Shown piece after piece: positions 23,498 through 43,766 of a DNA stretch of 64,000 bases. Position 1 is the stretch's first letter; each line of letters starts with the position of its first letter. The position numbers were made by a program, and so were the translations under genes. This stretch comes from a virus: positions 32,001-96,000 of IMG/VR virus record IMGVR_UViG_3300025010_000004; one strand, 5' to 3'. Under the pieces are notes generated by a model, which was not told the DNA's origin, ran no database searches, and saw only the letters and a program-made list of their open reading frames with translations.

Positions 23498-25033
23498 CTA
23501 CCGGCCAAGTAACCTTGCACGTATATCTGATAGGTTACCGTCAACCAACAGCACCCCGTCCTTAAATATTGGACGCAGTAGGTCAGTGCCAGCTGCCGCT
23601 ATCATGTTTTGGTTGGCTATTGACAATCCATCAATAGCCTCAATACCTTCAGCAGTCTGGACTACAACAACCCTACCGGTCAATGACTTTTTGATCTTGT
23701 CTGTATCAGTGGCAGGATCTTTGAAGATATTAACTTCCTTTCCTTTAATTACGCAGTGCGTTGACTTCATAGCGAAACCAAAGGTATCCCTAGTATTGTA
23801 TTGGTAGGTGTACGAACCTATACCAAATACAATATTTGTGGAAGCGAATCCTTTGCGCTTTAGGCGCTCGCAGATGTCTTTAGCCCTCTCAATGGTTATA
23901 GAGTCGCCGTAGATAGCGCCTATGTGGGGGTCAAGCTGCTTGTATCCTTTGCTGTTGATAGTGCCTCCGAAGGTATCCCACAGGATTTCTATGAGTCCTT
24001 TATAGGCGCTTTCACTACACTCCGGGTCAAACCTCTCAACATATACCTCGTAAGTGGAATAGTCAATCGTAGTGTTTAGCCCACAAATAATATCAGCAGG
24101 ATCTCCAGAATCAGGACGGATTACAACTTTACCATCCCTAGCCATGATAATATCTTTGAGCTTAGGAAGAATATTGCTGGTAACATGCCACAAATCCCAA
24201 GTATCAGATACGAGAGATACAATTCCCGTAGGATATACGTCTTGGATTAATCTACGAAATGTTTCATACTCATCTACTTTTCCTCCAGCGCAGACTACGC
24301 TGTGCTCAGTCGCCGGAACGCTACAGCCCACCAATTCTTTTTCGATATTGGCGTTGTATTTATCCTCAAGATAAAGTATAGCCGGAATAGTGTCTGTTCC
24401 TACAAACGATAGCAAGTGCCCTGCCCCACTTACACAAGCTGCTTCTACGGCCCCCATACCCCGCATTGAGAAATCGTGCCCCTGGAACTGCACGAAGTCT
24501 GGCATATCAGAAGTTTCCTCAGCGTATCTAGAAAGAATTTTGTGATATTCATACGCGATAGTGGCACTTGTGGAACCCTGCCACATCTCACACGAGGCCA
24601 AGGTTTCAATGTAGTTGGTAAGCCAGCCGAATCGTGGGTCGGTATTCTCAACAGTAAGCATAGGAACCCTTAGTGGAACAAGCGTTCCCTCCGGGACCGC
24701 TTTTATCAACAAAGGAAGATGCCCAAGTTCATGTAGCGCTCTTATATGTGTAGTATCAGGTTCCGCCACGCCTAACGTGAATTTAATCACCCTGCCGTAC
24801 TCTCCAGCAACTTCATCAACAGGACGGCTGAAGAAGTTTTCGTTAAAGAAGTCGATAAGCCAGTCTTTAACGAACCCCTGGAAGGAAAACGCCACCACTT
24901 TGTCAACGAACTTAATCCTTGACGTGCGAGGAATCCATGTGCTGTACACAATCTCAGTTCCGTCAGGATACTGGTCCTTGTGTCCGATTTTGTAGAAATC
25001 ACACAGTAACGTTGCAATTAGTCCTTTACGCAT
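23498..25033 (-). CDS. NAMPT-like protein (probable Namat of NARP1)
   Basis: DFYKIGH, HDFSMRG, PATEHSV, VSDTWD, IRPDSGDP, IYGDSIT, RDTFGFAMK. Confidence 0.92.
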   Translation of the reverse strand: MRKGLIATLLCDFYKIGHKDQYPDGTEIVYSTWIPRTSRIKFVDKVVAFSFQGFVKDWLIDFFNENFFSRPVDEVAGEYGRVIKFTLGVAEPDTTHIRALHELGHLPLLIKAVPEGTLVPLRVPMLTVENTDPRFGWLTNYIETLASCEMWQGSTSATIAYEYHKILSRYAEETSDMPDFVQFQGHDFSMRGMGAVEAACVSGAGHLLSFVGTDTIPAILYLEDKYNANIEKELVGCSVPATEHSVVCAGGKVDEYETFRRLIQDVYPTGIVSLVSDTWDLWHVTSNILPKLKDIIMARDGKVVIRPDSGDPADIICGLNTTIDYSTYEVYVERFDPECSESAYKGLIEILWDTFGGTINSKGYKQLDPHIGAIYGDSITIERAKDICERLKRKGFASTNIVFGIGSYTYQYNTRDTFGFAMKSTHCVIKGKEVNIFKDPATDTDKIKKSLTGRVVVVQTAEGIEAIDGLSIANQNMIAAAGTDLLRPIFKDGVLLVDGNLSDIRARLLGR

Positions 25034-25844
25034 CTCTTTTTACCTCCGTATAAAGTTGGTGTATGATAAGATTTTCTAGAGCAGTTGAATTACACATTAT
25101 GCTGTTTGTAGTATATACTTCGTCTATTAACTTTGATGTAAATATTTTCCCTGAGAATATAGTGTGCTCACAATGAGCAACCATAAGGTAAATATTCGCA
25201 GCGCCATGGGATTTAAGCGCCTCGGCTGCCGCAATAAAAGTTCCGCCTTTGGAGCATAGATCGTCTACTATCAGAACTTTTTTACCTTTTACACCTGTGC
25301 CTGACACAGAGTATTTTATGATATCACCAGTCTTGAAATCCCTTTCCTTGCTACCTACAGCGGAAGGATACCTTGCAACGTGACTATATCTCTTCTCAGC
25401 TCCTGCATCTGGGTAGAAAAGTATGGTGTTGTCCATTCCGTGCTTATCAACAAAGAGGGCCATGAGGGCTGGTATAATACTAATGTTTGTACACCGGTTT
25501 AGAAGAGCAGTAGAAACGTCGGAATGTGCGTCAACTACTTTAACTCTCGCAAAGTGCATTGCGTTAATCATATCGCATATGTACTTTAAGTTGAAAGTGT
25601 ATGTGTTGTTGGCTCTGTCCATTCTGCTGTACGGCATGTACAGAATCTTCAACGTCATTATGTTGTTCGGAATAACGTCATTCATGTAACTGCGAAGTAT
25701 GTACAAGTCCATAAGGTCTTGATCGGTTTCGAACTTTAGTACAACAACTGAGCTGTTGTGAAAAGTTATCTTATTGTAGTTCAGGTATCTTTCGTTGTTA
25801 GGAAAAACACCGAACTCAACTTTTACATTGTCAATTAAAATCAC
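25026..25844 (-). CDS. PRPP-synthetase-like protein (probable Adps of NARP1)
   Basis: FPNNE, YMPYSRMDR, DAHS, PDAGA, VDDLCSKGGTF. Confidence 0.9.
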   Translation of the reverse strand: MILIDNVKVEFGVFPNNERYLNYNKITFHNSSVVVLKFETDQDLMDLYILRSYMNDVIPNNIMTLKILYMPYSRMDRANNTYTFNLKYICDMINAMHFARVKVVDAHSDVSTALLNRCTNISIIPALMALFVDKHGMDNTILFYPDAGAEKRYSHVARYPSAVGSKERDFKTGDIIKYSVSGTGVKGKKVLIVDDLCSKGGTFIAAAEALKSHGAANIYLMVAHCEHTIFSGKIFTSKLIDEVYTTNSIMCNSTALENLIIHQLYTEVKRDA

Positions 25845-26182: not shown

Positions 26183-27271
26183 TTATTCTTTCGCTTTTAT
26201 ATTTAGCACAGGTTTTATGAAATCAACTACATCAATAGTAATACCCTCCTGCGCCTTCATGACGTAGTTAATGTCTTTGTATGCCTCTGGAGCCTCATCT
26301 AGTATGCTCCTATCTGTGGAACAAACAACGCCTTCCATCTGGCCTACGAATTTATCGTAGTCAAGATTCTTCTTGGCGGCGTTTCTGCCCATAGTTCGTC
26401 CACACCCGTGAGACGCCGATGAAAGAAACTTTTCATTACCAAGTCCTTTGGTGATGTACACACCATCCCTCATATTAGCAGGAATTATGCCAAGTTGATG
26501 TGCGTCGGCTGGCGTAGCACCTTTTCGGTGCAGCACTCCTTCTTTTGTAATAATTGCGTGGTTATGGTTTTCGTTAATTAGAAGATTGCTCTTGTATGTG
26601 ACACCGAGAATCTTACATATTTTGTTTATCATTTTTAACCTGTTATATAACGCCCACTCTAACGCAAAATTCATATCCCCTAAGTAGGACAACCCAAGGT
26701 CTGATAATAAAGGAAACATTCTTCCTTGTTTCATGTACCACCCGCCTATTGTATGCCCAACGTTACGACTTCCTGAATGAATAGTCACACAATACGTGCC
26801 AGTATTTTGGCTTATCCCTATCTCTATGAAGTGATTGCCCCCTCCTAGAGTACCTAGCTGCATAACAGATTTTTCTTTTACTCTCTGTTTCACTTCTTTA
26901 GGCATGTGAGAGTGGATAACATATTCAAAATGATAGTCTGACTTATCAAGAGATGAAAATCCAGTAGGGATGGTTTTAACTATATCATCGTATAACTGTT
27001 TAAGGTTATCCTTTGATAGCTCATACTGAGGTATGTTTGTGTCAACCGAGCACATACCACATCCCACGTCGAAGCCTACGAAGCTAGGAGAGATCATGCC
27101 GTCAAGCAAGGCCACTCCGCCGATTGGAAGATCATAACCAGCGTGAACGTCAGGCATAATAGCCAATTTTTTAAGACATTCCAATGAAAGAACGTCATAA
27201 ATCTGCTGCTGCGCTGACTGCTCTATTTCTTCCATCGGCACCATAGACTGTAGTTTGTCAAGCTTGCTCAT
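26183..27271 (-). CDS. rtcB: RtcB-family RNA ligase
   Basis: MPDVHAG, DVGCG, GGGNHFIE, HSGSR, NHN, HRKGA, SHGCGR, DEAPEAYK. Confidence 0.96.
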   Translation of the reverse strand: MSKLDKLQSMVPMEEIEQSAQQQIYDVLSLECLKKLAIMPDVHAGYDLPIGGVALLDGMISPSFVGFDVGCGMCSVDTNIPQYELSKDNLKQLYDDIVKTIPTGFSSLDKSDYHFEYVIHSHMPKEVKQRVKEKSVMQLGTLGGGNHFIEIGISQNTGTYCVTIHSGSRNVGHTIGGWYMKQGRMFPLLSDLGLSYLGDMNFALEWALYNRLKMINKICKILGVTYKSNLLINENHNHAIITKEGVLHRKGATPADAHQLGIIPANMRDGVYITKGLGNEKFLSSASHGCGRTMGRNAAKKNLDYDKFVGQMEGVVCSTDRSILDEAPEAYKDINYVMKAQEGITIDVVDFIKPVLNIKAKE

Positions 27272-27281
27272 ATAATCTCCT

Positions 27282-27632
27282 TTACTCCTTGAAATATTCG
27301 TTGTATGCTTCTACTGCGGCTTTGATTCTGGGCCAGTCTTCCGAATAAATATCGAAAGTATGATAGTTTTGTATTGCAGACCCTCGCAGGTAGCATGTTA
27401 AAGTTGTTCGCCTAGCATGACTTACTACTTTTTGGGTGTGCGGAATATTCCCAGCGTGTGATACTAGGCGCACTCCGTTATGACAGAAGTCTACCGCTTG
27501 TTGTATTTGTACTACCTTTGGCAACTTTAAATCCCCAAAATCAGTATGAAAATGAGTTTGCTCAAGTATAGTTACAGCAGCCGCAGTCCTATCCTCAGAC
27601 AAAACACATTTAAGTTTTATATGTTTAGGCAT
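27282..27632 (-). CDS. EQTH-family paralog 11
   Basis: KHIK...ILEQTH...YLRG...WPRIKAAVEAYNEYF. Confidence 0.85.
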   Translation of the reverse strand: MPKHIKLKCVLSEDRTAAAVTILEQTHFHTDFGDLKLPKVVQIQQAVDFCHNGVRLVSHAGNIPHTQKVVSHARRTTLTCYLRGSAIQNYHTFDIYSEDWPRIKAAVEAYNEYFKE

Positions 27633-27634
27633 AG

Positions 27635-27970
27635 TTACTCCTTGAAATATTCGTTGTAGGCTTTAACGGCCTCCTTAATTAAAGGCCACATGTCGGCAGG
27701 TACGTCGAACGCTACGTTTTTTCTACTACTGGATATTAACCTAACATCAACTTGCCCGTCAGTCTTGTTTCGTCCGTCAAAGTTAGGATAATTATGCGTA
27801 GCAGAGAACAGGTCAATAACTCCGTGTCTGAATACTCTGCTATGCATTCTACCGGAAATATTTCCTCCAAACTCATCATCAAAATGTGTCTGTTCAAGTA
27901 TAGTCACGGATGCGGTTTGTTTGTTTTTAGATAGTATGGCGGATAATTTAAGGTGTTTATGCATATTCAC
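27635..27970 (-). CDS. EQTH-family paralog 12
   Basis: KHLK...ILEQTH...WPLIKEAVKAYNEYF. Confidence 0.85.
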   Translation of the reverse strand: MNMHKHLKLSAILSKNKQTASVTILEQTHFDDEFGGNISGRMHSRVFRHGVIDLFSATHNYPNFDGRNKTDGQVDVRLISSSRKNVAFDVPADMWPLIKEAVKAYNEYFKE

Positions 27971-28586: not shown

Positions 28587-29933
28587 TCACTTTAACGCCG
28601 CCTTCATTCTTGCGACGGCCTCTTTCTTTCCAAGGACGTGCATTACATTTACTACAGGAGGCGAAGCTGTTTTACCTGTGAGAGCCATGCGTATTTGCGG
28701 TCCGAGTTCTTTTAGCGTTACGTTATGTTTTTTACAGCCGTGGCTAATGGCCTCTTCTATATCTTCTATAGAATAGGTCTTTTTCTTCTCAAGTATTTCC
28801 ACTATGGAACCTACTGAATGATCGGCCCTTACCGCTTTAGGCTTTTTGTAATACACCTCAGCCATTTCTGCAATCTCAATTAAAGTCTTTGCCCTCGGCT
28901 GCAACAACTTCACAACCTCAATAATATCAGGGCCTTTGTCAGTTTTGTAGTGCATGAACGGCTTGGCTTGTTCCGCTATTCTCTTGGGATCGCCGTTCTT
29001 AATCCAATGCGCGTTAATGTGCAGCATTTTGTTCGGATCAAGACACCCTGGCGCTCTACCTACCGAATTAAGCGAGAACTTTTGTATCAGGTCGTCCATT
29101 GAGAATATTTCTTCATTCTTGTAGCTCCAGCCTACACGGGCAAGCCCATTGACAACAGCCTCCGGAAGAAAACCTTTATCCCTGTAGTCAAGGACAGAAG
29201 CATCACCGTTTCTCTTACTGAGTTTTTCGCCTTTATCATTAAGGATGAACGGGGTGTGGGCATATTCAGGAACCGGAAAGCCAAGCGCCTGATACAGCAT
29301 AGTCTGGGCTGGCACGTTGCCTACTCCGTCAACGCCTCGGACAATATGTGTAACACCCTGTAGGGCATCATCAACCATATTTGCAAGGAGGTATCCTACG
29401 CTTCCGTCCTGCCGTTGGATTACGAAGTCGCTGATCTCGCTGTTCTTCACGCTGATCTTTCCGAGAACATGATCTTTCCATTCTACGCGGCCCTGGTCTT
29501 GGGTCTTAAACCGTATGACGAATGGCTTTCCTTCTTGCTCTGGCTTTTCATAGCAGGTTCTATCGTAGAGGGGCTTTTGCTTGTTCCTCAGCATTTCATC
29601 CCTTTTTGCTGTGAGTTCTTCTGCCGTGCAGTAACACTTGTAGGCTTTTTTCTCTTTCAGGAGTTTATCTACGTATTCCTTGTAGATGTGACCTCGTTCG
29701 CTTTGGTAGATTATTTCTACGTCACTTTTGATGCCAAGCCAGTTGAGCCCTTCTAAAATGTTGTCTGCGAACTCTTGGGTAGATCTTGAAAAATCGGTAT
29801 TCTCAATACGCACGATAAAAGTTCCTTTATGTTGCCTAGCAAAAATATAATTATGCAAACTCTGGCGGGCCATCCCACAGTGCCCTGGGCCGGTGTTAGA
29901 TGGTGCTACGCGGCATACAATAGGTTTAGTCAT
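28587..29933 (-). CDS. gltX: glutamyl-tRNA synthetase, atypical active-site motifs
   Basis: RVAPSNTG..HCG, RIENTD, YQSER, CYC, VDD...THIVRG, KLSKR, anticodon domain IRMALTG; start revised to ATG 29933. Confidence 0.9.
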   Translation of the reverse strand: MTKPIVCRVAPSNTGPGHCGMARQSLHNYIFARQHKGTFIVRIENTDFSRSTQEFADNILEGLNWLGIKSDVEIIYQSERGHIYKEYVDKLLKEKKAYKCYCTAEELTAKRDEMLRNKQKPLYDRTCYEKPEQEGKPFVIRFKTQDQGRVEWKDHVLGKISVKNSEISDFVIQRQDGSVGYLLANMVDDALQGVTHIVRGVDGVGNVPAQTMLYQALGFPVPEYAHTPFILNDKGEKLSKRNGDASVLDYRDKGFLPEAVVNGLARVGWSYKNEEIFSMDDLIQKFSLNSVGRAPGCLDPNKMLHINAHWIKNGDPKRIAEQAKPFMHYKTDKGPDIIEVVKLLQPRAKTLIEIAEMAEVYYKKPKAVRADHSVGSIVEILEKKKTYSIEDIEEAISHGCKKHNVTLKELGPQIRMALTGKTASPPVVNVMHVLGKKEAVARMKAALK

Positions 29934-30068
29934 AATTAAATTCTCCTTTGTGTTAGTTTGTAAGTAGAACATTTTCTACTTTTTAGTTAATAAAAAATGC
30001 TTATATTCGGTATATAATACATATAGGAGCAGTTGGATTCGGCTCAAATAACTTATACTGGAGACGCG

Positions 30069-31325
30069 ATGAACCATTTTTACGTTTACTGCTACACAAA
30101 CCCAACAAAACCTGGAAGGTTCACTTTCCCTAATACAAATCTTTCTTTTCTATATGAACCTTTTTACATCGGTAAAGGTGCTTTAGATAGGATGTATAAT
30201 CATGTTAATGAGTCAATTAAAAAGAAAAATAAAACATGGAAAAATAAAACAATTTTATCTATATTAGAATCTGGGTACAATCCTAAAGACTTTGCATTTA
30301 AGCTGGCTGTACAATTAACAGAGGAGGAGGCATACTCAGTAGAGGAAACGTTAATAGCCACTATCGGCAGGCTGTCTACTAGAAAAGGCCCACTACTTAA
30401 TATACGAACTGGCGGGTTAGGGAGTAGTAATAAAAGTTATTGGAAAACAACTAATAAACTAACCCCAATACAAGAATACGAATGTGTATCTTTATACTTA
30501 AATGGTGAATCTATTAGTACATTATCAGCTAGGTTTGGGTTATTTAAAACCGCCATCCGAGGTATATTACTACGGCACGATGTAACAATAGTACGTAAAC
30601 CCACAGAAAAAAGAAGCAAGACTTTAAGTCTCATCCCAAATATTCTAGAAGACTACGAAAACGGTATGTCATCTATAAAAATAGGACAAAAATACTGTAT
30701 ATCAAAACGCACTGTATTATCAGAGCTTAGGAAAGCAGGAGTAACTATGAAAGAGCCTGCTTTCTATAAGACTATAAAAGATGAAGATGTACCTAATATA
30801 AGAGCCGCCTTTTTACGTGGAGAACGTGTAGAAGCTTTGGCCAAAAAATATAAAGTATCCACTAATACTATAAATAGGGCTATTCGTTATAATGAAGTAG
30901 TAACAGCAACTGGAAAATTAAAAATTAAAACTAACATTACCAGGCATAACCTGCTTAAAAAACTAACCGAAGACCAAGAATATCAACTAGGTCAAGACTA
31001 CATAGCTGGTATGTCATCTAGTGAATTAGCAGCAAAGTATAACGTTTTCTACACAACAGCCCTAGCAATTTTGAAACGACTCAACATACAAACTAGGCCT
31101 AGTTCAACACCAGACAAAACAACAATTGACCTAACACCAGAAGTTATAGAAATGTACCAGTCAGGACTAAGCTCTCTCGATATATTCAGAAAGTTGCCAG
31201 TAAGTCGCAACACAATTTTACGCATTCTTCACAGAAATAATGTACCACTTAGGCAAAGTGGAAAGCAGCCTACTAAGGTTATAGGTAGTAGTGATGCAGA
31301 AGAACTTGATGCTATGATGCAATAG
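30069..31325 (+). mobile_element. free-standing GIY-YIG-like homing endonuclease with tandem HTH repeats
   Basis: FYVY...PFYIGKG..R...H...E..LI...LLN; five Y/F..G.S...LA.KY-like HTH repeats; opposite strand, AT-richer than flanks. Confidence 0.7.
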
Positions 31326-31409: not shown

Positions 31410-32075
31410 TTATCCGATCACAACAGCACAGGCGTCCACCGGTACTTCTATTGCTTTTGCAGGCGCAGCACATTTCTTCGATGCAGCGTAAACTTCGTTG
31501 TATTCTTTGACTGCATCTGCGAGCTTCTTGAAAGTGGCCGCAGGAACACGCATGACGTTGTTGTCCGAGCGGTTATCGGTTCCTCGCAGATATAGTTCGT
31601 TATGACCTATGCTGTAAAACGCTGGAGATGTATCGCTCAAAAGCTTGAACCCATTCGAGGCCACAAAATAGTTTGCATTTTCAGAAAAATCTTTTCGAAT
31701 GTGCGTCTGCTCAAGAACCTGAACATCCACAAACTGAAAGTCGGGGCCAACCGGAGTGCCGGAGATCTTGATGTGGCGCGGGTCGAAGGAGAAGAAGGCG
31801 TTGTAGGCTTCGACGGCAGCTTTGATCTTGACGTATGTAGCAACTGGTACGGCTATGGTTCGGTGGTCCAGATCGCGCCGAGTTCCACGTACATACAGAA
31901 GACCCCCATAGAGAGCCAAAGCCCCTTGACTACTAAGAGTGAACCCATCGTGCTTGAATTCCTCACCACAAGTACCGAATTCAGCTCCCCTGTGGCTCTG
32001 CTCAACAATTCCTATCTCTACTGTCTGAAAATCCGGCCCGATAGGTTTCACACTCAGTTTGATACTTTTCTTCAT
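31410..32075 (-). CDS. EQTH-family paralog 13 (two tandem domains, DACAVVIG tail)
   Basis: EQSH...YVRG...AAVEAYN, then RHIK...EQTH...YLRG...AVKEYN, then tail. Confidence 0.88.
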   Translation of the reverse strand: MKKSIKLSVKPIGPDFQTVEIGIVEQSHRGAEFGTCGEEFKHDGFTLSSQGALALYGGLLYVRGTRRDLDHRTIAVPVATYVKIKAAVEAYNAFFSFDPRHIKISGTPVGPDFQFVDVQVLEQTHIRKDFSENANYFVASNGFKLLSDTSPAFYSIGHNELYLRGTDNRSDNNVMRVPAATFKKLADAVKEYNEVYAASKKCAAPAKAIEVPVDACAVVIG

Positions 32076-35594: not shown

Positions 35595-36017
35595 CTATTG
35601 TGCTTCGTTTTTGTCGTAGATAGCGGCATACAAGGGTATATTGGCCGTGCAGCACTGTGAGTTGTAGGCTGCCAAATCGTAGCCTACAACTGCGAACGCC
35701 TTGTACATCATTATCCATAGCTTGAGTTCGGCTATCCTTTTGCGGACTGCCTTGCCGAACACGTAGAAGCGGATGGTGCGTATGATTGGGAGGCGCAGAA
35801 TAGCATATTCTGCTACTGTTGGTAGTCCTTCGTATCTATTACATCTATGCCCTTTTATACTTATCCACGGGCAGGAGTCGCACTTAAGATTACTTACTTT
35901 GCACAAAGAACAACCCGTATAGGTCGTCTTGTGCGTGTATTTACGATACTCCACTATAAGCTGTTCCATAGCCTTGATATTCTCTTTGACGTTTACCGGG
36001 GCCTTAAGCAGTCGCAT
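35595..36017 (-). CDS. hypothetical Cys-containing protein
   Basis: ORF track; CSLC...CDSCP. Confidence 0.55.
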   Translation of the reverse strand: MRLLKAPVNVKENIKAMEQLIVEYRKYTHKTTYTGCSLCKVSNLKCDSCPWISIKGHRCNRYEGLPTVAEYAILRLPIIRTIRFYVFGKAVRKRIAELKLWIMMYKAFAVVGYDLAAYNSQCCTANIPLYAAIYDKNEAQ

Positions 36018-37380
36018 TTTTGATTTCTCCTTTTTCTATGAGGGTTTTAGTGTATAACAGCCCGTCTTCCCTTGTCAAGAACTTTTCTTCCATTTGGTCT
36101 TCATACAGCCGTTGGAGGATAGCGCCGAAATGTTTTCCAGGCTCCATGCCCATATCAATAAGGTCTCGGCCAAGAATAATCGGGGTGACTTGTGATTTTA
36201 TTTCCTCGAACACGCGCATGACCTCAGAAATCCTAGCTGAGTTTTCAGGCTCATATTCAGCGGCTACAACACCACCACGTCCAAGCCTATCCGCCTTGTG
36301 CAATTTTACTAGCTTATACATGTCAACCGAGGCGGCCAACTTGCGCACAGCCTTACGGCTCACCCCTGCTTTCTTAAAATCGTAAGGCCTCATGTGATGC
36401 TTAATGAGATTTATAGCGGATTCAGTAAGTCCTATCTCATTTGTTAGCCGAGCGATAGCCTTTTCAGCCAAAGAAGTCTCTTCCGCGTGACCTTTGAAAT
36501 GAATCTTACCGCTGTCTTCTGTGTTGACCTCATTAGGAACAAGCCCCTTCCCTAAATCATGAAATAAGAGGGCCAGCATAATATCCAATTCCCTGTCAAT
36601 AACAGGAATGGCATCTATTGCCATAAGGGTGTGATTATACACGGAACCTTCTGGATGATACGTGCTTCCTTGTTCAATTTTCTTGGTAGCGACCAGCTCA
36701 GGAAACAGTACATCGAGAATGTCCATAGCCTCAAGCGTCTTGAAGAAAACGGATGGAAGAGGAGCGTTCATTAGAACTCGCACCACTTCATTAAACACTC
36801 GTTCCTGAGGCAGAGCTTTAACTTTAATTGGGCCGTGTACTTTGCATAGCGCCATTGTTTGAGCTTCTATGTTCATGAACGGGTAAATAGCCTTGAACCT
36901 CGCTACTCTCAATATACGCAAAGGGTCTTCCATGAATGTGCCAACATTCACGTGCTTTATGCGCAAGATACGAAGGTCAGGTATCCCATTAAACGGGTCT
37001 TCGAACTTACCCGTCAACGGATCGAGGTAAATAGCGTTCATCGTCAAGTCCCTACGAACCGCTGCCAAGCTCAACGGCAGCTCTTCGCGTATCCTAGCGG
37101 TTAGATCACGGTGTCCTTCGCCAGTTTGCTCATCAAGCCTCGGCAGGCTAACGTCAATATCTTTGACTTTGTAAACTCCGTATTGCTTGCCTACGTAGTT
37201 GACCTCACCGAAAGTTTCGAGAACTGCTTCGAGCTTCTCGGCTGAGAGGTTGAAAACTTCAATGTCTATGTCGGTGGAAGGTATGCCTAGGAGTAAATTT
37301 CTTACGTGGCCTCCTGTATAAAAAACTGAACCTCCCGCCTTGTGAATTGCCAACGATAGTTCAAGCGCAAACTTTTGCAT
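36004..37380 (-). CDS. cca: CCA-adding tRNA nucleotidyltransferase with HD domain
   Basis: GGHVRN...DIDIE, RRDLTMNA, EDPLRILR, ERV..E, HPEG...HT, LFHDLGK. Confidence 0.92.
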   Translation of the reverse strand: MQKFALELSLAIHKAGGSVFYTGGHVRNLLLGIPSTDIDIEVFNLSAEKLEAVLETFGEVNYVGKQYGVYKVKDIDVSLPRLDEQTGEGHRDLTARIREELPLSLAAVRRDLTMNAIYLDPLTGKFEDPFNGIPDLRILRIKHVNVGTFMEDPLRILRVARFKAIYPFMNIEAQTMALCKVHGPIKVKALPQERVFNEVVRVLMNAPLPSVFFKTLEAMDILDVLFPELVATKKIEQGSTYHPEGSVYNHTLMAIDAIPVIDRELDIMLALLFHDLGKGLVPNEVNTEDSGKIHFKGHAEETSLAEKAIARLTNEIGLTESAINLIKHHMRPYDFKKAGVSRKAVRKLAASVDMYKLVKLHKADRLGRGGVVAAEYEPENSARISEVMRVFEEIKSQVTPIILGRDLIDMGMEPGKHFGAILQRLYEDQMEEKFLTREDGLLYTKTLIEKGEIKNATA

Positions 37381-43691: not shown

Positions 43692-43766
43692 TGGCGTCCC
43701 TTACAGGATTTGAACCTGTGTCTCTCGCGTGAAAGGCGAGTGTCCTGTCCACTAGACTAAAGGGAC
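43692..43766 (-). tRNA. tRNA-Glu(UUC), CCA encoded
   Basis: GTCCCTT/AGGGAC acceptor, CTCGC-CTTTCAC-GCGAG anticodon arm, GGTTCAAATCC. Confidence 0.92.

Follow-up and report, generated by a model that had tools for sequence, protein, structure and literature searches.

Most of what is known of aminoacyl-tRNA synthetases encoded by phages comes from huge phages, and the usual assumption is that such enzymes are ordinary copies of those of the host. In huge phages, tRNAs, tRNA ligases and CCA-adding enzymes accompany full-length glutamyl-tRNA synthetases (GluRS) (Al-Shayeb et al. 2020, PMC7162821, Extended Data Fig. 7), for which a role in charging tRNAs of the phage or the host and in repairing tRNAs cut by host defences was proposed (PMC7162821). 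Here we describe a GluRS gene found in a 64,000-nucleotide stretch of viral DNA (IMG/VR record IMGVR_UViG_3300025010_000004, positions 32,001 to 96,000; hereafter the window, in which position 1 is the first nucleotide). The huge-phage enzymes (LR756501, LR756502, LR756504 and LR745206) are encoded by genomes of 630-735 kb and keep Bacteroidota-like motifs (RG.EW and the HIGH His), with PTYHLAN present in two of them and the Pro kept in three of the four, whereas the gene described here lies on a genome of 113 kb and belongs to a separate lineage with a signature of its own.

28587..29933, minus strand: phage GluRS gene (protein P0001, 448 amino acids), with a class I Glu/Gln catalytic domain and a bacterial anticodon-binding domain

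P0001 belongs to the bacterial GluRS family by score, architecture, fold and substrate-binding residues, the HIGH-type signature being kept only in part among its relatives. It matched the bacterial GluRS equivalog model TIGR00464 at 445.2 bits (cut-off 289.95), with the same result on the genome, and the Pfam domains tRNA-synt_1c (PF00749, 277 bits) and Anticodon_2 (PF19269, 88 bits). The open reading frame (ORF) is full length, as had been stated in an initial annotation of this DNA, the TIGR00464 match spanning residues 5-445 of 448. That annotation had also named a structural model as a check, and an AlphaFold2 model built on 96 sequences had a mean predicted local distance difference test score (pLDDT) of 96.7 and matched Escherichia coli GluRS (8i9i) in a Foldseek comparison with a template modelling (TM) score of 0.92. 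Given that the ATG at 29933 has a Shine-Dalgarno sequence (AAGGAG) in front of it and that the alternative upstream ATG (ORF 28587-29972, 461 amino acids) falls within the palindrome GTAGAA-N4-TTCTAC at 29964-29979, the 448-amino-acid product is likely the protein.

Bacterial GltX enzymes (8i9i; Xanthomonas 5h4v; Stenotrophomonas 7k86) have the same five-domain architecture and fold as P0001, and they share with it the KLSKR motif, the Arg/Arg/Asp network, the CxC...C cluster and a helical anticodon-binding domain. In the group of phage proteins to which P0001 belongs, unlike in GltX, the His of RGxDH is replaced by Gly and the Pro of PTY by Val, the basic residue of NTP[R/K]Q and the Leu before the HIGH His are missing, and two of eight members have Thr in place of the HIGH His itself. 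The group is monophyletic, was seen on phage contigs only and is at most 48% identical to any cellular GluRS. In the window protein the relevant segments are as follows.

29859..29912, minus strand: rewritten HIGH region, RVAPSNTGPGHCGMARQS (canonical RFAPSPTGyLHvGGARTA)
29793..29810, minus strand: RIENTD replacing RIEDTD
29553..29636, minus strand: CxC...C putative zinc cluster (C100, C102, C127; CYC...C)
29313..29399, minus strand: VGYLLANMVDD...RGVDGVGNV, with the clade signature P179V, T180G, N182L, V185N, M192Q, H203G and T207V
29211..29225, minus strand: KLSKR (KMSKS-type) loop with Ser239 kept, followed by the clade-fixed N242

The changes quoted in the initial annotation (HIGH region, RIENTD, VGY and RGVDG..NV) were all found at the expected codons. 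Its description of KLSKR, the CxC region and the anticodon domain as intact was also borne out, K237-R241 and the three Cys being invariant in the clade and PF19269 being present; at the putative zinc cluster the position of the fourth ligand is variable. In the HIGH-type signature of P0001, His18 is retained (GHCG) and the preceding Leu is gone. The view that the changes are gathered at the pocket relies on where the HIGH, RIEDTD, PTY and RGxDH motifs are known to lie, positions that we assume to apply to this protein, and by analogy with the class I architecture H203, T207 and R209 would be expected to serve the site for adenosine triphosphate (ATP) and the tRNA end.

Relatives were sought in 5.8 billion clustered proteins, in 1.84 billion representatives (with a clade profile), in IMG/VR and in JGI metagenomes. 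Seven were found at 45-56% identity (P0003, P0004, P0005, P0270, P0006, P0090 and P0085). Two clusters stood out in the clade-profile search, at 810 and 576 bits, the next match scoring 463. In a maximum-likelihood tree the eight proteins formed one clade (Shimodaira-Hasegawa-like approximate likelihood ratio test support, SH-aLRT, 100; stem 0.40), and all four members with readable DNA context were on phage records.

G000 (window phage): 113 kb, complete
G001: 113 kb, complete
G002: 64-kb fragment
G003: 106 kb, 93% complete

GenBank phage records contained no relative above 38% identity, most of the matches there looking like bacterial contigs filed as phage, and a search for relatives at the DNA level returned a short RtcB match only.

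The clade was compared with a background of 257 GluRS (143 diverse 50%-representatives and 114 Geobacter-like sequences), among which 76 positions are near-universal, with conservation of 93% or more. Departures from these number 11 in the window protein and 7-13 in each of its seven relatives, compared with a mean of 2.0 and a maximum of 10 in the background. The clade as a whole keeps 55 of the 76, fixes another residue at two (H203G and L267I) and varies at 19, which are concentrated at HIGH (9, 14, 17, 18, 24-26), at RIEDTD (41, 45-47, 50) and at 206-207. Further residues are fixed or nearly fixed at less conserved sites (P179V, N182L, V185N, M192Q/T/S, loss of K/R209, M/L229F, H242N and A244D), and all eight members carry H203G, P179V, N182L, V185N, M229F and KLSKRNG. 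Position 203 is His in 251/257 background sequences and Gly in 8/8 clade members; the sole background sequence with Gly is P0085, which itself belongs to the clade. The full combination was present in none of the 257 background GluRS and in none of the 80 nearest cellular GluRS. The latter were drawn from 185,579 species genomes, are all at most 48% identical and are canonical at every signature site (H203, P179 and D45 each in 80/80).

An open question in the initial annotation was whether the motifs are shared by phage homologues or common in the host lineage. The answer to the first part is divided: H203G, P179V, N182L and V185N recur in 8/8 members, whereas P13N and T24Q are private to the window phage and D45N is found in two of the eight. 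As to the second, the set is not common in the nearest cellular lineage (80/80 canonical), while single elements do occur in other cellular GluRS. As judged from these comparisons, the eight proteins appear to form a small phage-restricted lineage of which the unusual motifs are a fixed signature. This would make them a separate small GluRS lineage, carried by phage records of 64-113 kb, in which a remodelling of the most conserved class I signatures appears to have been fixed under selection. A recent capture from a Geobacter-like host was not supported: Geobacteraceae gave the best cellular matches (46-48%), but the clade did not fall within that group.

The single elements have precedents. 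G203 together with YLLSNVVDD was found on bacterial contigs of the L085 and L020 type, beside SerA, HisFH and a DEAD-box helicase, and V179, L182, N185 and Q192 were found on the bacterial contig L019, which carries pilins and an S-layer protein. Two background representatives whose source is not given have APSNTGP (P0176) and RIENTD (P0145). KLSKRNGDAS is the common form among the recovered metagenome GluRS; we take it to be the Firmicutes-type form. A chimeric origin of the central segment from an L085- or L019-type GluRS was considered; in a sliding-window comparison identity rose only a little in that segment (0.54-0.57 versus 0.44-0.51). Given that the elements occur singly in other GluRS, no single change is incompatible with a housekeeping GluRS. 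The samples held no precedent for the combination, for the loss of L17, T207 and K/R209, or for Thr in place of the HIGH His (P0003 and P0270).

Much of the catalytic core is unchanged. The residues invariant in all eight members are R8, P11, S12, G20, R23, R42, E44, D188, D189, R199, G200, D202 (the acidic residue of RGxD), Q210, H226, K237-N242 (including Ser239), C100, C102 and C127. Arg5, Arg205 and Asp195 in Thermus numbering form the strictly conserved glutamate network (PMC2978374), and these correspond to R8, R199 and D189 of P0001. The pocket Tyr (Tyr187 in Thermus, Y181 here) is Tyr in six members and Phe in two. The clade genes are under purifying selection. For the closest pair with DNA (P0005 and P0270, the genes of contigs L003 and L010, 87.5% identical) the ratio of nonsynonymous to synonymous substitution rates (dN/dS) was 0.16, with values of 0.10-0.22 for the separate thirds of the gene; the N-terminal third had about 0.10 (ratio of the proportions of nonsynonymous and synonymous differences, pN/pS, 0.24). 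Decay into a pseudogene was therefore rejected, the reading frames being full length in eight lineages, dN/dS being 0.16 and the catalytic core being invariant.

The explanation that we favour, with modest confidence, is that this is an active, fast-diverged and phage-restricted GluRS that insures the supply of Glu-tRNA-Glu within a set of tRNA-maintenance genes. We infer catalytic activity and tRNA-Glu as the substrate: the enzyme would load glutamate onto the tRNA-Glu of the host and, where the phage has a copy of its own, onto that copy as well. The signature, which would lie in the part of the pocket that holds the ATP ribose and the tRNA 3' end, probably arose on the stem of the clade and would since have been kept by purifying selection, with the glutamate-recognition residues and the KMSKS loop left unchanged. 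Several observations weigh against this explanation. The HIGH His, invariant in 257/257 background sequences, is Thr in P0003 and P0270; L17 and the basic residue of NTP[R/K]Q are lost in 8/8 members and T207 in at least 7/8; and the His of RGxDH is Gly in 8/8. Compared with ordinary GluRS sets, and relative to the whole protein, conservation is lower in the N-terminal Rossmann half (identity ratio 1.05 versus 1.11-1.29) and higher in the anticodon domain (0.84 versus 0.62-0.74). In addition, G003 (93% complete) carries the GluRS and no tRNA gene.

Part of this evidence, namely the shift of conservation from the Rossmann half to the anticodon domain, the Thr in 2/8 members and the 19/76 variable positions, mostly around HIGH and RIEDTD, would also fit a catalytically weakened protein whose main role is to bind tRNA-Glu, by way of well-kept anticodon and D-arm domains and with little aminoacylation, and which so shields the tRNA from anticodon nucleases or sequesters uncharged tRNA-Glu from RelA. 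We think this very unlikely given that the glutamate-binding residues, D202, H226, KLSKR and the Cys cluster, none of which a pure binder needs, are all invariant. The N-terminal third is not relaxed (dN/dS about 0.10), and its lower identity comes at least partly from recombination, as indicated by saturated synonymous divergence (see below).

The same invariance bears on the suggestion in the initial annotation that the substrate is altered. For the amino acid this was not upheld, since the R8/D189/R199 network, E44 and S12 are invariant in 8/8 and Y181 is conserved or replaced by Phe. A wider change of chemistry (another amino acid, another nucleotide, tRNA-free activation of glutamate, or a non-canonical acceptor as in GluQRS) would agree with the position of the altered residues, which flank the ATP ribose and A76 site and not the anticodon domain, and with a match of P0001 to the GluQRS model TIGR03838. 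It is nevertheless extremely improbable: the Arg/Arg/Asp network specific for glutamate is intact, the anticodon-binding domain is full and well conserved, the GluQRS score (233.8 bits) is below the cut-off (276.7), and a gene for glutamyl-tRNA reductase, a known consumer of Glu-tRNA, was not found in the genome. P0001 as a GluQRS proper was rejected by the same score and by its anticodon domain. GluQRS/YadB (1nzj, 4a91) shares the class I Glu-type catalytic domain with P0001 and has no anticodon-binding domain, whereas that of P0001 is present and conserved, and the fold match to GluQRS covers the catalytic half only (query-normalised TM, TMq, 0.56). Some details of the pocket presumably resemble E. 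coli YadB, that is, the absence of Pro before the pocket Tyr, Q192, a residue other than His after RGxD, and LN..G.KLSK.N.

At the 5' end of the gene, the following gene lies about 100 bp from the GluRS start.

30033..31325, plus strand: free-standing GIY-YIG homing-endonuclease-like gene with multiple helix-turn-helix (HTH) modules, divergent from the GluRS gene (Pfam LEM-3_GIY-YIG and HTH domains)

At the same site and in the same orientation as this gene, HNH-type endonuclease genes (PHROG 559 and 9084) were found in two relatives (L003:8865-9872, minus strand; L010:9024-9884, minus strand), and the GluRS of G001 (contig L002) has no endonuclease next to it. Thus endonucleases of two unrelated classes are found in 3/4 phages. 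At the DNA level the two HNH genes cannot be aligned with each other, in contrast to their flanks, which are about 85% identical. One homing site upstream of the GluRS gene seems to have been invaded independently by the HNH-type and GIY-YIG genes. The genes have the marks of a free-standing homing endonuclease, being inserted beside a conserved gene (the putative target), absent in a relative and adjacent to raised divergence. When the GluRS genes of L003 (9965-11371) and L010 (9983-11353) were compared, the proportion of synonymous differences (pS) was saturated at codons 1-100 (0.69-0.78; 0.78 at codons 1-60), fell to 0.19 at codons 121-180, rose to 0.85 at codons 201-260 and was 0.12-0.29 further downstream (0.12 at codons 321-380). 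This unevenness indicates that the GluRS gene is a recombination mosaic. Much of the apparent relaxation of the N-terminal part would accordingly be due to older recombined sequence that is still under purifying selection.

The initial annotation had proposed that the substitutions recode the gene to escape the adjacent endonuclease. For the HIGH segment the idea has partial support: the private rewrite of the window protein comprises seven substitutions within 13 codons (39 bp), it lies about 100 bp from the endonuclease gene, whose site is used by two endonuclease classes, and pS between L003 and L010 is saturated at this end of the gene, being 0.78 at codons 1-60 against 0.19 at codons 121-180. 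The rewrite could reflect co-conversion or immunity of the target site, and the favoured explanation places it in a probable hot spot of recombination and homing at the 5' end of the gene. For the changes shared by the clade the idea fails. The signature at codons 179-244 lies 500-700 bp downstream of the endonuclease site and is therefore not explained by endonuclease-linked rewriting; it is also present in G001, and the second tract of high pS (codons 201-260) is separated from the 5' end. That the sole cause of the substitutions was recoding of an endonuclease target, so as to spare the endonuclease-carrying allele, is thus highly improbable.

The window genome is a complete virus record of 113,294 bp with direct terminal repeats that encodes a DnaB-like helicase, a DNA ligase, PhoH, a large terminase and six tRNAs. 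Several genes of tRNA maintenance and nucleotide metabolism are in the window.

23498-25844: NAMPT-type phosphoribosyltransferase gene and an adjoining gene resembling phosphoribosyl pyrophosphate (PRPP) synthetase
26183..27271, minus strand: RtcB RNA ligase (Pfam RtcB, 258 bits)
36004..37380, minus strand: CCA-adding tRNA nucleotidyltransferase with an HD domain (Pfam PolyA_pol, PolyA_pol_RNAbd and HD)
43692..43766, minus strand: tRNA-Glu(UUC) with a canonical anticodon loop (CUUUCAC) and encoded CCA (ARAGORN; Rfam tRNA, 70.8 bits)

Among the four related phage records, the GluRS and the CCA-adding/HD enzyme are both present in 4/4, RtcB in 3/4 (also in G002 and G003, not in G001), NAMPT in 2/4 (the window phage and G002, not G001 or G003) and tRNA-Glu in 2/4 (the window phage and G001). 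Given that the GluRS is present in all four records and tRNA-Glu in only two, the former appears to be a long-kept core accessory gene that must work with the tRNA-Glu of the host. It may form the core of a translation-insurance set, with the CCA-adding enzyme, the RtcB ligase and a few tRNAs, that would keep the decoding of Glu codons running during infection. Glu accounts for 6.5% of the codons of the phage, with GAA preferred (GAA 39.9 and GAG 25.3 per 1000). A dedicated orthogonal pair of GluRS and tRNA-Glu was considered and lost ground, since G003 has the enzyme without a tRNA gene, which indicates that the two are not a dedicated pair, and since the window tRNA-Glu is canonical by eye (G1-C72, U2-A71, U11-A24, U13-G22 and a variable loop of 4 nucleotides).

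The G001 record (IMGVR_UViG_3300025030_000005) carries, at about 106.6-109 kb, four identical tRNA-Glu(UUC) genes (L004:560-634, 1229-1303 and 2886-2960). Their anticodon loop is CCUUCAA, in which C33 replaces the near-universal U33, and by eye they show an apparent covariation to A19-U56 from G19-C56. Such a C33 tRNA-Glu could be a nuclease-evading tRNA. The NAMPT and PRPP-synthetase-like pair has the look of salvage of nicotinamide adenine dinucleotide (NAD), of the kind that phages use against NAD-depleting defences.

These genes recall the T5-type nuclease-resistant tRNAs (PMC10264068) and the PARIS-neutralising tRNA (PMC11464382). Here too tRNAs are borne by the phage, together with RtcB and the CCA-adding/HD enzyme, and the multi-copy tRNA-Glu of G001 with its altered anticodon loop is a further likeness. 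The described systems differ in having no aminoacyl-tRNA synthetase, and a nuclease directed at tRNA-Glu is not known for the host of this phage.

Several of these findings would be compatible with an active GluRS whose remodelled pocket and HIGH region were selected for insensitivity to a host factor that shuts down GltX. The factor might be a kinase of the HipA type, phosphorylating GltX at Ser239 when tRNA is bound, or else a small molecule or toxin directed at the conserved active site, and by restoring Glu-tRNA-Glu the phage would avoid an arrest resembling the stringent response. We regard this as unlikely, although evidence exists on both sides. HipA inactivates GltX via Ser239 (PMC8262856), the accessory neighbourhood is of the counter-defence type (NAMPT and PRPP-synthetase-like genes, RtcB, CCA-adding/HD enzyme, tRNAs), C33 in the G001 tRNA-Glu alters the anticodon loop in a way for which escape from anticodon nucleases has been proposed (PMC10264068), and none of the 80 nearest cellular GluRS has the signature. 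Against this, single elements of the signature are present in cellular GluRS, and Ser239, which the initial annotation had correctly listed as a retained HipA target, is unchanged throughout the clade together with the entire KLSKR loop. A search of the literature found no HipA-type or GluRS-directed anti-phage system, and we know of none. Two further suggestions of the initial annotation, inhibitor resistance and a decoy for HipA-like kinases, were neither supported nor contradicted, Ser239 and KLSKR being kept, though a working enzyme is more likely than a decoy.

A related proposal, which we consider rather more doubtful, is that a re-engineered site for the nucleotide and the 3' end, marked by Gly in place of the RGxDH His, loss of the NTPR/K base and a HIGH His that would be dispensable, alters the activation of glutamate or blocks recognition by a host kinase or toxin, giving an 'immune-proof' GluRS. 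Examples, equally doubtful, might be activation independent of tRNA, or tolerance of nucleotide analogues or of ATP depletion. It is similarly doubtful that Glu-tRNA-Glu would in this way stay charged while a response of the abortive-infection type shuts down the host GltX.

The favoured explanation, an active phage GluRS insuring Glu-tRNA-Glu, would have consequences beyond this phage. A group of mid-sized phages (records of 64-113 kb) keeps a GluRS in which the most conserved ATP-site signatures are replaced and whose gene is still under purifying selection. If the enzyme is active, the HIGH His and the RGxDH His would be dispensable in a natural class I enzyme, and the clade would offer a natural starting point for studying tRNA-dependent activation of glutamate. 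If instead the changes serve evasion, this would be the first counter-defence at the level of a synthetase and would suggest that anti-phage immunity in the host is aimed at GltX or tRNA-Glu. With its repeated invasion by endonucleases of two classes, the 5' flank gives a clean natural homing hot spot beside a segment that codes for the active site.

Some minor features of the surroundings were also observed. TPM and LemA genes are also near the GluRS gene. The GluRS/endonuclease pair is flanked by 'EQTH' paralogs of about 100 amino acids (27282-27970 and 31410-32075), an expanded family that had no Pfam or PHROG match and that has the same arrangement around the GluRS of G001. The palindrome in which the alternative start codon lies is the following.

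29964..29979, no strand assigned: GTAGAA-N4-TTCTAC palindrome, 31 nucleotides upstream of the GluRS start

It has 25 copies in the window (24 others, at 2659-48843), compared with 0 expected in shuffled sequences, and copies stand just upstream of the starts of both the GluRS and the CCA-enzyme gene. The palindrome probably serves the leftward gene block as a promoter or operator element specific to the phage. Among the bacterial contigs, the GluRS subtype of L085 (9986-11476) and L020 has RFPPSPTG, YLLSNVVDD, RGQDG and KISKRS and has a tRNA-Gln(UUG) gene within a few kb; this subtype may be a GluRS2-like enzyme directed at tRNA-Gln.

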